NCBI GenBank assembly: GCA_026387835.1
Contig: JAPLKZ010000004.1
Coordinates: 73,931 to 105,930 of the forward strand
Source: Candidatus Saganbacteria bacterium
Lineage (GTDB): Bacteria; Margulisbacteria; WOR-1; JAKLHX01
DNA: 32,000 bases
Reading direction: 5' to 3'
Below, piece by piece: positions 9,704-30,764 of this stretch. Numbering within the stretch: position 1 is the stretch's first letter; each line of letters begins with the position of its first letter. The position numbers and the translations under genes were made by a program. The notes below the pieces were generated by a model. That model was not told the origin of the DNA. It was given only the letters and a program-made list of their open reading frames with translations, and did not search any database.

Positions 9704-9720
9704 ATTATCCTCAATTCAAT

Positions 9721-9805
9721 TAATGACTAATTACTAATGACTAATGTCTAATTAATGTAAAATATTATGATCTAATAATTATTCCTTAATTAGTCATTAG
9801 TAATT
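9721..9805 (+). repeat. AT-rich palindromic element, copy A (short variant, about 85 bp)
   Basis: The first 36 nt, AATGACTAATTACTAATGACTAATGTCTAATTAATG, are identical to copy B. The right arm is CCTTAATTAGTCATTAGTAATT. It fills the gap between two cistrons and contains the stop codon of gene 9786..10832. Confidence 0.85.
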
Positions 9806-10841: not shown

Positions 10842-10942
10842 AAATGACTAATTACTAATGACTAATGTCTAATTAATGAAAATATTATTATTAAATAATT
10901 ACTCCTTCATTAGTCATTAAGAATTAGTCATTAGTAATTCTC
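10842..10942 (+). repeat. AT-rich palindromic element, copy B (101 bp)
   Basis: Differs from the reverse complement of copy C (29994-30094) at a single position (10922 A versus C). It contains the final codons RRITND and the stop of gene 10924..12396. Confidence 0.9.
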
Positions 10943-21512: not shown

Positions 21513-21791
21513 TTACTTCCGTTTTGAAGAGGCTTTCGGGATTTTTTTATCCTTTTTTATCAAAGCTAATTTTTTCGTTCTCGACCACCTTTTTATCTGC
21601 GCCTCTCTTTTTAAGGCTTTACTGCGGTTTTTGCAAGCTTCATGATAACGGATCTTTAAAGCCGGGTTATACGAAGTGTAATGTCCGCCTTTTCCCGTCT
21701 TGTGCTCGTTAAACCGCCTTTTGACATCGGTCGTGATGCCGGTATAAAGAGCTTTATTTTTGCATTCGATGATGTAGAGGAAGTATGGCAT
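21513..21791 (-). CDS. GIY-YIG nuclease family protein (UPF0213/YhbQ-like)
   Basis: YFLYIIECKNKALYTGITTDVKRRFNEHKTGKG matches the GIY-(10)-YIG ... R ... E/H motif series. ATG 21791 is preferred; the alternative TTG 21809 would overlap the kdpE stop by 8 nt. Confidence 0.8.
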   Translation of the reverse strand: MPYFLYIIECKNKALYTGITTDVKRRFNEHKTGKGGHYTSYNPALKIRYHEACKNRSKALKREAQIKRWSRTKKLALIKKDKKIPKASSKRK

Positions 21792-29917: not shown

Positions 29918-29991
29918 TGGCTGCGGGACTAGGATTCGAACCTAGACAGCCAGCTTCAGAGACTGGCGTCCTACCATTAGACGATCCCGCA
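29918..29991 (-). tRNA. tRNA-Gln (anticodon CUG), CCA encoded
   Basis: Hand-folded. Acceptor TGCGGGA/TCCCGCA with U1-A72 and discriminator G73, as is typical of bacterial tRNA-Gln. D arm GTCT-AATGGTA-GGAC. Anticodon stem CCAGT/GCTGG with loop CTCTGAA. T arm CTAGG-TTCGAAT-CCTAG. Confidence 0.9.
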
Positions 29992-29993
29992 AA

Positions 29994-30094
29994 GAGAATT
30001 ACTAATGACTAATGCTTAATGACTAATGAAGGAGTAATTATTTAATAATAATATTTTCATTAATTAGACATTAGTCATTAGTAATTAGTCATTT
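29994..30094 (-). repeat. AT-rich palindromic element, copy C (101 bp, inverted relative to copy B)
   Basis: Its reverse complement matches 10842-10942 at 100 of 101 positions. It starts 2 nt from the 5' end of tRNA-Gln and ends 20 nt from the stop of the four-helix-bundle gene. Confidence 0.9.
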
Positions 30095-30114
30095 TATTGA
30101 ACAAGAATATTATA

Positions 30115-30465
30115 TCAGGATTTCGACTTACGTATAATCGCGGCAAGTATCAATATAATCTCGCGGCATTCACTTGTAATGTTTTCAAGTTCTTTTTTGT
30201 TATCAGCATTGTTAATTAATTCGGCTTCTTTCATTATTTTAAGCCAATATTCGGTTTCCTGAGCCTCCTTTTTTGCTATAAAGACTTTATTGATAAAATC
30301 TTTCTTTGAACAGGCTGAATCGGCTTCAGTCATATTCGCTCCGATAGATGCGGCGCTCCTTAAAAGCTGATCATTGATAATGTTTATTGAGGGGTTCTTT
30401 GAAATACGTTTTATAAACTTAACTATTTGTACCGCAAACCGCAACGTCCTATCCTGTATTTCCAT
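30115..30465 (-). CDS. four-helix-bundle protein of the 23S rRNA intervening-sequence (IVS) protein family
   Basis: 116 aa. LRFAVQIVKFIKRI...QLLRSAASIGANMTEADSACSKKDFINKVFIAKKEAQETEYWLKIM matches the family hallmark (…QL.RSa.SI.aNiaEg….s.kdF…l.iA.gSl.E..ywL…). Confidence 0.85.
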   Translation of the reverse strand: MEIQDRTLRFAVQIVKFIKRISKNPSINIINDQLLRSAASIGANMTEADSACSKKDFINKVFIAKKEAQETEYWLKIMKEAELINNADNKKELENITSECREIILILAAIIRKSKS

Positions 30466-30479
30466 TTTACAATGATTTT

Positions 30480-30515
30480 CCTTAATTAGTTATTAGTCAT
30501 TAGAAATTAGTCATT
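30480..30515 (+). repeat. partial palindromic element, copy D (right-arm type)
   Basis: CCTTAATTAGTTATTAGTCATTAGAAATTAGTCATT. It lies between the four-helix-bundle start (14 nt away) and the stop codon of gene 30516..30764, which it directly abuts. Confidence 0.75.
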
Positions 30516-30764
30516 CTACACCGGCGGTTTCCACCATTGCGGCTGTGCGATCAGAATATATGCTCCGTATAACAATATAATAGCCGCAGCTGCTGCAAAA
30601 ACCCAAAAATTAATGTCGCGTTTCCTGCCGTTCTTTACCATGACAGCTGTGGCAATGAATGCTATAAGCGAAAGTATTATCAAAGCGGAACCTTTAAATA
30701 CCGGACTTTCGCTTATATACCTTATTATTTTAGAGCCGGTCTCAAAATCGATGAATTTTAACAT
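30516..30764 (-). CDS. small membrane protein (82 aa, two TM helices)
   Basis: Two hydrophobic helices (ALIILSLIAFIATAVMV and FWVFAAAAAIILLYGAYILIA) separated by a basic loop. No recognisable family. Confidence 0.5.
   Translation of the reverse strand: MLKFIDFETGSKIIRYISESPVFKGSALIILSLIAFIATAVMVKNGRKRDINFWVFAAAAAIILLYGAYILIAQPQWWKPPV

Follow-up and report, generated by a model that had tools for sequence, protein, structure and literature searches.

Layout of the locus

A window of 32,000 nt from a Candidatus Saganbacteria genome (G000, 1.5 Mb; contig JAPLKZ010000004.1) holds, at positions 29994-30515, a compact cassette in which a single small gene lies between arrays of 7-nt repeat units. 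The gene, P1, encodes a 116-aa four-helix-bundle protein, and P1 with its flanking repeats (copies D and C) fills the whole gap between the stop codon of a membrane-protein gene and a tRNA-Gln gene. The original prediction, made from the window alone, had likened this arrangement to the intervening sequences (IVS) of 23S rRNA and had taken gene-less copies of the arms for short forms of the element, comparable to MITEs, the miniature transposable elements with inverted repeats. The analysis reported here largely bears out both parts of this picture, the IVS-like cassette and its MITE-like short forms. The nearest database relatives place G000 in Margulisiibacteriota/Saganbacteria. It was compared with 41 related genomes, coded G001 and higher; P2 denotes the other PF05635 paralogue of G000.

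Reading along the minus strand, an 82-aa membrane-protein open reading frame (ORF; 30516-30764) is followed by a 5' arm (copy D), a 5' untranslated region (UTR), the 116-aa ORF, a 20-nt spacer, a complete hairpin (copy C), 2 nt and the tRNA gene, all features lying on this strand. Copy D (30485-30515, 31 nt) abuts the upstream stop codon (30516-30518) and consists of four to five 7-nt units (sense strand AATGACT AATTTCT AATGACT AATAACT AATTAAG), the innermost of which begins 14 nt upstream of the P1 ATG. The 5'UTR (30466-30484) contains a Shine-Dalgarno-like AAGGA at 30479-30483, 13 nt before the ATG, and P1 itself occupies 30115-30465. The spacer behind its stop codon (30095-30114) is a 3'UTR remnant (TATAATATTC...) common to G009, a relative that has TGATATAATGTTC at that place. 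Copy C (29994-30094, 101 nt) is a complete hairpin of the type also found bare, with units ACTAATG/ACTAATT spread over an outer arm (29997-30033), a loop (~30034-30052) and an inner arm (30053-30096); its inverted repeat measures 42 nt at 79% identity, or 24 nt at 92%. It stops 20 nt short of the P1 stop codon and begins 2 nt past the tRNA-Gln gene (29918-29991, anticodon CTG, found by ARAGORN). This tRNA gene is the downstream same-strand neighbour of the cassette and adjoins the membrane gene in most relatives, where the conserved C-terminus of the membrane protein, PQWW.PP(Y/V), marks the empty site.

Every coordinate that the original prediction gave for gene, arms and neighbours checks out. 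P1 is indeed flanked 20 nt downstream by copy C and 14 nt upstream by the partial arm D, and the cassette is wedged between a tRNA-Gln gene 2 nt from copy C and a membrane-gene stop codon abutting copy D. The gene-proximal arm of copy C recurs in direct orientation as copy D (44 nt, 89%, spacing 422), and the outer arm of copy C is complementary to copy D (24 nt, 88%). With up to two mismatches allowed, the window contains 19 matches to the motif ACTAATGACTAAT, where shuffles give an expectation of 0.64; none of 100 shuffles reached 19.

The cassette protein and its paralogue

Profile searches place P1 in the IVS-protein family, as had been proposed. The match to TIGR02436 scores 88.8 bits (cut-off 24; E 2.5e-25, residues 4-114) and that to PF05635 71.9 bits (cut-off 33.8), both above the respective cut-offs. 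Its nearest solved relative is PDB 2RLD (E 3.9e-20 by sequence, 1.2e-31 by profile), which was deposited with five chains.

P2 is the only other PF05635 gene in G000 and is 52% identical to P1. Its layout repeats that of P1 (5' arm, gene, direct copy of the 5' arm, loop, inverted arm), and its arms are made of TCCAATG/ACCAATG units, unlike the ACTAATG of P1. Across the whole of G000, inverted pairs of heptamer arrays 200-2500 nt apart were found only at P1 and P2. The expectation that paralogues would share the flanks of P1 was thus borne out for the architecture and failed for the sequence, as the analogous arms of P2 are of the TCCAATG type and not of the ACTAATGACTAAT type. Because the P2 arms use another unit, the link is to the repeat-array design and not to one sequence.

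Substitution patterns indicate strong purifying selection on these four-helix-bundle proteins, so they are presumably functional. Between P1 and the gene at the same site in G009, nonsynonymous divergence (dN) is 0.12 and synonymous sites (dS) are saturated. For P2, the dN/dS ratio between G000 and G007 is 0.034. In this second comparison the 5' arm, ribosome-binding site and a small stem are ~94% identical, and 61% of synonymous sites differ.

Filled, empty and replaced sites

The order tRNA-Gln, membrane gene, nadB is conserved across the class. Comparison of this interval among relatives, which the original prediction had put forward as a way of finding an unoccupied site, revealed empty sites in G006, G015 and G011, members of three families in which the gap from membrane-gene stop codon to tRNA is 5-10 nt. 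Eight genomes (G008, G005, G003, G002, G004, G013, G022, and G018) hold a bare hairpin or array of other units at this position, while G009, G007 and G001 hold a gene-bearing cassette. All three states occur within one genus, where the site is filled in G007, carries a bare hairpin in G003 and is empty in G006. In a second genus, G009 is filled and G008 has a bare hairpin of another unit.

The G009 cassette, from the same order as G000 and another family, uses an ACTAATG-type unit and encodes a protein 78% identical to P1. As this value is close to the 81% identity of nadB, the cassette is old at the site; judged from these identities, the comparison shows it to have been there since before G000 and G009 diverged. 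A different history is apparent in G007 and G001, whose cassettes have other units and proteins only 44-46% identical to P1, though nadB is 79-81% identical. This discrepancy indicates replacement at the same site. Alignment of filled G007 with empty G006 showed an insert bounded exactly by both arms, with the last two codons of the membrane gene displaced.

The P2 site, where an aminotransferase gene precedes a FAD oxidoreductase gene, is empty in G005, with 4 nt between the two genes. In G008 the same site has the 5' arm, UTR and first codons of a G000-type cassette; behind them come a second arm and a four-helix-bundle gene of a different kind.

A second array, of CCAAT type (CCCATTGG(T/A)CATTGG...GGAAATTTCCC), occupies the divergent promoter region that separates the start of the membrane gene from nadB in L041 (G009) and L043 (G008). 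The G000 window has no CCAAT-type array between the membrane-gene start and nadB.

Origin of the bare hairpins

The ACTAATG hairpin is present in G000 in ~10 full and 4 half copies, and two of these lie in the window apart from the cassette. Copy B (10842-10942) occupies the junction of two co-directional genes, a junction that is empty in G008 and G002. Copy A (9719-9801) is more diverged and encloses the stop codon of the upstream gene within its arm; its junction is empty in G008, G002, and G003. Because the same gene junctions are empty in relatives, both hairpins are insertions.

To trace their source, we aligned the bare hairpins of G000 against the simple arm-gene-arm cassette of G009, since the G000 cassette includes hairpin C, which makes an alignment to it uninformative. 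Two matching blocks were obtained, with the ORF skipped. The first block comprises the 5' arm and 5'UTR to ~5 nt before the ATG (32/34, 46/53, and 41/46 identities) and the second the 3' arm. The CTAATTAAGGAA junction of the P1 5'UTR recurs in the loops of the bare hairpins. For its part, G009 has bare hairpins that retain the AAGGAA junction of its own cassette, along with that cassette's small stem-loop (ATCGCGCAGCGAT) and irregular 3' arm (CATTAGTGGCATTAG). As judged from these alignments, the dispersed bare hairpins (A, B, C and ~7 more) are shown to be ORF-less derivatives of the P1 cassette type that were inserted at other gene junctions. The view of A and B as short forms of a gene-bearing element is thereby supported by the two-block alignments and the empty junctions, as well as by the co-occurrence of gene and hairpin described below.

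Copy C is 99% identical to copy B over 101 nt (one base differs) at a distance of 19 kb. In the orthologous G009 cassette hairpin C is missing, and a small stem-loop leads into a plain 3' arm. Since C is absent from this orthologue and nearly identical to B, it is, on this comparative evidence, a recent addition at the 3' arm, made by insertion or gene conversion. The original prediction had counted the complete hairpin as part of the cassette. That layout is real, but C does not belong to the original design, which in view of G009 was arm-gene-arm. Likewise, the P2 cassette has gained a direct copy of its own 5' arm relative to the G007 orthologue, and the arm-gene-arm-loop-arm layout recurs in L004, L013, L026 and L091. 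If two such direct arms recombined, the gene would be lost and a bare hairpin would remain.

Pairing of repeat units with protein subtypes

Each subtype of the protein was found with its own unit at more than one locus. In both G025 and G022, a P1-type gene (58-60% identical) flanked by ACTAATG or ACGAATG arms is located upstream of murE. The P2 orthologue of G007 (91% identical) has TCCAATG arms at a different nearby position, and the P2-like gene of G027 also has TCCAATG arms. As both subtypes keep their own units at other loci, subtype and unit go together while the site changes.

A corresponding pattern was observed between genomes. Exact matches to ACTAATGACTAAT number 17 in G000, 8 in G009, 8 in G022 and 6 in G025, whereas each of the other 37 genomes has 0-2. 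The same three relatives, G009, G022 and G025, hold the three best P1 homologues outside G000. G008, of the same genus as G009, has neither a P1-type gene nor multi-copy ACTAATG hairpins. These distributions fit a spread of hairpins only where the cognate gene is present, with the caveats that gene and arms may descend together and that the threshold was chosen after the data were seen. Repeats in relatives without such genes had been named as the finding that would speak against a link; no genome besides the four with the P1 subtype has ACTAATG hairpins in multiple copies.

Genes of the PF05635 family are present in 37 of the 41 related genomes, with up to 14 per genome. We surveyed the arms of 32 of them (the best per genome plus both G000 genes) with a gapped local inverted-arm score, using 25 neighbour genes as controls. 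Inverted arms scoring above all 25 controls flank 24 of the 32 genes and none of the controls. A strict 7-nt periodicity filter with ungapped arms had found 12 of 32, which is an undercount because some arms have 8- or 9-nt units and indels. Each armed gene has its own unit, with a period of mostly 7 nt (about two thirds) or 8 nt, and arms usually hold 4-5 units (range 2 to 10). Several other PF05635 genes have one-sided arrays or a complete downstream hairpin.

This design extends to other phyla. In a sample of the P1 subfamily from Patescibacteria, Chloroflexota, Planctomycetota, Gammaproteobacteria, Bacteroidota, and others, 37 of 72 loci exceeded the 99th percentile of a cross-locus control, with a period of 7 in 29 of 31. 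The P1 subfamily keeps A-rich units with motifs such as CAAAT and TCCAA, and the other PF05635 clade has purine-rich units. A full-text literature search under the family names found no paper describing such cassettes outside rRNA.

Many cassettes of relatives (L088, L091-L098) contain a small GC-rich stem-loop (e.g. GTCGCCTGTGGCGAC, ATCGCGCAGCGAT, CCCGCGAAGCGGG) just inside one arm, in the 5'UTR or past the stop codon. Between the P2 orthologues of G000 and G007 the stem is kept and the loop varies.

RNA structure and strand polarity

Folding of the sense transcript is predicted to pair arm D with the outermost 3' arm, forming a ~40-bp stem which encloses the ORF. Minimum free energy and centroid structures agree on this pairing, in line with the original proposal that the two arms could close a stem around the gene. 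The predicted closing stem also pairs the AAGGA of P1. Folded alone, hairpin C RNA has a predicted energy of -29.6 kcal/mol (z -8.6).

The arms keep a fixed polarity with respect to the gene. Among 56 cassettes of the P1 subfamily, 46 have a 5' arm whose sense strand is rich in A and poor in G, and in 19 of 21 cassettes of the other clade that strand is purine-rich. As repeated units leave the register ambiguous, we tallied G:U against A:C mismatches in place of hairpin covariation. Sense-strand arms contained 59 G:U and 37 A:C mismatches (p = 0.03). Taken together, conservation of arms and protein, arm polarity and the G:U excess point to a strand-specific role, which would most simply be exerted in RNA.

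A promoter-like site (30807-30779, minus strand) precedes the membrane ORF, and none was found between the membrane ORF and P1. G000 has an RNase III gene.

A probable insertable cassette

The element is probably a small insertable cassette that shares its design with the ORF-bearing 23S rRNA IVS, here located in the transcribed spacer between a membrane gene and tRNA-Gln. It consists of a single PF05635 gene and the ribosome-binding site of that gene, enclosed by two inverted arrays of 7-base units, and would be transcribed together with its neighbours. Host RNase III may then cut the ~40-bp arm stem or the local hairpin C, by analogy with the in vitro cleavage of the Coxiella IVS stem. Such cuts would release upstream mRNA, cassette RNA and tRNA precursor from one another, and the insert would therefore do little harm. 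Stop codons in all frames of the arms could end read-through translation. As protein subtype travels with repeat unit, the protein probably acts on the arrays.

Several observations weigh against an insertable element of this kind. The only ORF of the cassette is P1, which matches no other Pfam or NCBIfam profile and has no transposase, recombinase or nuclease domain. The original prediction had likewise recognised no transposase or recombinase, and P1 indeed matches no further profile in these two collections. There is no target-site duplication at the junction of filled G007 and empty G006, nor at the flanks of hairpins B and C, and no Y1 (RAYT-type) transposase in G000. Repeated precise loss could account for part of the filled and empty states. 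For many heptamer arrays in G000 there is no cognate four-helix-bundle gene; arrays can thus persist in its absence. Regarding transcription, the promoter scan is a consensus match, and promoter and terminator sites are no more frequent than in shuffles. Finally, the G:U excess is modest and could reflect strand composition.

The strongest alternative assigns the mobility to the protein. It holds that the four-helix-bundle protein is the trans-acting factor of the element and that a ring of subunits reads the tandem units, one per subunit, on single-stranded RNA or DNA. The ring would drive copying, insertion or retention of the cassette and its bare hairpins, which would then form a transposase-free pair of autonomous and non-autonomous elements. 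The pairing of subtype and unit across families and sites (P1 with ACTAATG, P2 with TCCAATG) accords with such recognition, as do the unit motifs held by subfamily across phyla (CAAAT and TCCAA, with purine-rich units in the other clade) and the confinement of multi-copy cognate hairpins to the four P1-subtype genomes. The typical 4-5 units per arm, the five chains of 2RLD, fixed arm polarity and the strong conservation of both protein and arms are also consistent with it. However, joint descent of gene and arms explains the coupling without binding, the family has no catalytic motif, and arm length varies from 2 to 10 units. Moreover, many arrays lack a cognate gene in the same genome, and CCAAT arrays are present in G009, where no P2-type gene passed the threshold used. 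On balance we consider this model possible, at roughly one chance in four. The same modest credence applies to its broadest form, in which heptamer-armed cassettes are widespread transposase-free mobile elements, each protein ring recognises its own arm units and promotes their copying or retention, and 23S IVS, short tandemly repeated repetitive (STRR) sequences and Xanthomonas arrays all belong to one system.

Alternatively, nothing here may be mobile. The arrays would then be structural or regulatory repeats of the host, such as hairpins resembling STRR or repetitive extragenic palindromic (REP) sequences that stabilise or terminate transcripts, and the resident gene would use them, for example as a translational switch. 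Intergenic heptamer hairpins of the STRR type, with a proposed role in transcript stability, occur in filamentous cyanobacteria (PMC2670836), whose phylum is sister to that of G000. In G000, too, arrays lie at many junctions without any gene, and the predicted closing stem would hide the ribosome-binding site. What makes this explanation doubtful is the behaviour of the element between genomes. Filled and empty states alternate at two orthologous sites, even within a genus, and the same protein subtype and unit recur at unrelated sites. Cassettes are nested or replaced, hairpins are ORF-less cassette copies inserted in a lineage-specific manner, and the association with one gene family far exceeds that of the controls.

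Movement by known machinery, whether integron-type recombination at an attC-like hairpin, a REP/RAYT system (RAYT, REP-associated tyrosine transposase) or retro-mobility with an Avd-like cofactor, is very improbable even though some relatives show a gene with one complete downstream hairpin (superficially ORF + attC), Avd, which accompanies diversity-generating retroelements (DGRs) as an accessory protein, is reported as a member of the Pfam family (PMC10053308 cites PF05635), and G000 has a decayed DGR, because G000 has no Y1 transposase, the arms are tandem 7-8-nt units and not attC boxes, and cassettes are scattered singly at gene junctions and not arrayed at one attI site. Reverse transcriptase was found in 12 of 41 relatives and is absent from the cassette-rich genomes G005, G010, G013, G018, G032, and G037. 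The REP/RAYT-like and retro-mobility readings were set aside on these grounds, namely the lack of a Y1/RAYT transposase and the absence of reverse transcriptase from most relatives, including cassette-rich ones.

Other repeat-armed and related loci

Heptamer arrays also enclose other genes in G000. At G000:C12:237808-238480 the cargo is a gene pair encoding a Phd/YefM-like antitoxin of 114 aa and a RelE/ParE-like toxin of 83 aa. Of the surrounding GCAGTAC-type arrays, one arm precedes the genes and a direct arm and then an inverted arm follow them, and a TTGACA-N17-TATTAT promoter lies immediately within the 5' arm. Four-helix-bundle genes are therefore not the only cargo of the repeat-array platform. 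A nucleotidyltransferase/HEPN-like gene pair at G000:C10:139395-140475 lies between direct GCAGTNN arrays and has a promoter similar to that of the toxin-antitoxin locus. This insert sits at the 5' end of a patatin-like gene, the first ~45 nt of which are found on both sides (~75% alike). At G000:C12:135679-135920, inverted GTTATCA-type arms surround ~190 nt containing tRNA-Gly(GCC) and an upstream GC-rich segment.

Heptamer tracts occur inside long ORFs at G000:C5:64523-64560, C3:231105-231139, C9:71674-71707, and C10:172733-172763, with the units TTTCGGA (four copies), CTTCAGC/CTTCCGC, CGAAATC, and AAATCGC. The first two keep the reading frame, in a transketolase-like ORF (KSEIRNPKSE) and a tgt-like ORF (KAKAEGGRLKAEEG).

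The decayed DGR (G000:C9:117890-119650; L034 160-1923) comprises a target gene whose C-terminal variable region is N-rich, a truncated reverse transcriptase of 218 aa and a 112-aa Avd-like gene which is missed by PF05635 at E 0.01. Stand-alone GIY-YIG genes of 85-99 aa were found in the window (21570-21785, minus strand) and at G000:C3:300108-300314 and G000:C3:198794-199003. The one at C3:300108 lies between direct copies of ATTGCCGGATCGGCTAACGG, beside an apparent tRNA-like sequence. Small GIY-YIG genes were considered as a second cargo and rejected, as none of the three in G000 has heptamer arms.

Significance and comparison with known systems

The locus bears on three old loose ends, namely the origin and mobility of rRNA IVS, the function of the very large PF05635 protein family (up to 14 copies per 1.5-2 Mb genome) and the unexplained excess of 7-base tandem repeats in bacteria. 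It ties these together in one lineage with unusually clean evidence: an orthologous site that is found empty, with a bare hairpin or with one of several gene-bearing cassettes, short forms traceable to the long form, and a genome-by-genome link between gene subtype and hairpin. The question can now be tested in cultivable bacteria that carry such cassettes. Recognising them also matters for annotation, as they split operons and sit against tRNA genes.

Avd shares with P1 its reported Pfam family and a small helical-bundle protein. It differs in context, as the locus has no reverse transcriptase and no template or variable repeat, the reverse-transcriptase matches of G000 lie on other contigs, and 29 of 41 relatives have no reverse transcriptase. 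Sequence and profile searches from P1 did not reach Avd structures.

Pairs of autonomous transposons and MITEs offer another parallel. As in such pairs, the terminal inverted arms are common to both forms, the short form corresponds to the long one with the ORF taken out, dispersed copies are multiple, and presence or absence is polymorphic at orthologous sites. Short forms are also multi-copy only where the gene type of the long form occurs. In contrast to transposons, there is no transposase-like domain and no target-site duplication was seen, the arms are tandem arrays of 7-8-nt units, and cassettes of one genome differ in their arms.

These units may be equivalent to STRR2 (TTGGTCA) of cyanobacteria. 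Like STRR sequences, the window element has tandem 7-nt units forming intergenic hairpins, although its host belongs to a sister phylum and not to the cyanobacteria. Cyanobacterial STRR have been described as 7-bp repeats, their function not known in that account (PMC2670836). In Xanthomonas and Nostoc, GGGAATC and GGGGA(C/T)T heptamer arrays, usually of four units, lie <50 nt from start or stop codons, with strand polarity and 70-75 convergent pairs, mostly beside hypothetical genes (Rehm et al. 2015, PMC4692102). The shared features are tandem 7-nt units, often about four, near start or stop codons, with polarity and convergent hairpin-forming pairs. The interpretation differs, as those arrays were read as G-quadruplex or transcript-stability elements (PMC4692102, PMC2670836). 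Rehm et al. 2015 name no gene family and report no link to mobile elements (PMC4692102), and the terms S23, intervening and helix bundle are absent from the text and supplements of the heptamer-array papers (PMC4692102, PMC2670836). One of their arrays, #15, overlaps the start of XCC0516 (PMC4692102), and the structure of this protein (2GSC, five chains) gave a weak match to a P1-based profile (E 0.45).

Among the closest counterparts is the ORF-bearing 23S rRNA IVS, known from helix 45 of Coxiella burnetii, with an S23p ORF, and also from Leptospira (Warrier et al. 2016, PMC4990558). The G000 assembly contains no 23S (LSU) rRNA gene. In Coxiella the 5' arm consists of tandem GACAGAT heptamers (2-3 copies and one degenerate) between the ribosome-binding site and the ATG, and the 28-bp heptamer-bearing stem is cut mid-stem by RNase III in vitro (PMC4990558). 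Unlike that IVS, the window element lies in an mRNA-tRNA spacer (ordinary operon junctions in relatives) and not in 23S helix 25 or 45. Its gene is under strong purifying selection where the Coxiella ORF is reported to be decaying, and it has dispersed ORF-less hairpin derivatives and an extra complete hairpin at its 3' end. In design the two nonetheless coincide. Both carry a PF05635-family protein inside the element, a heptamer 5' arm and a total length of ~430-540 nt, and in both terminal inverted repeats close a long predicted RNA stem, here of ~40 bp, around the PF05635 ORF.

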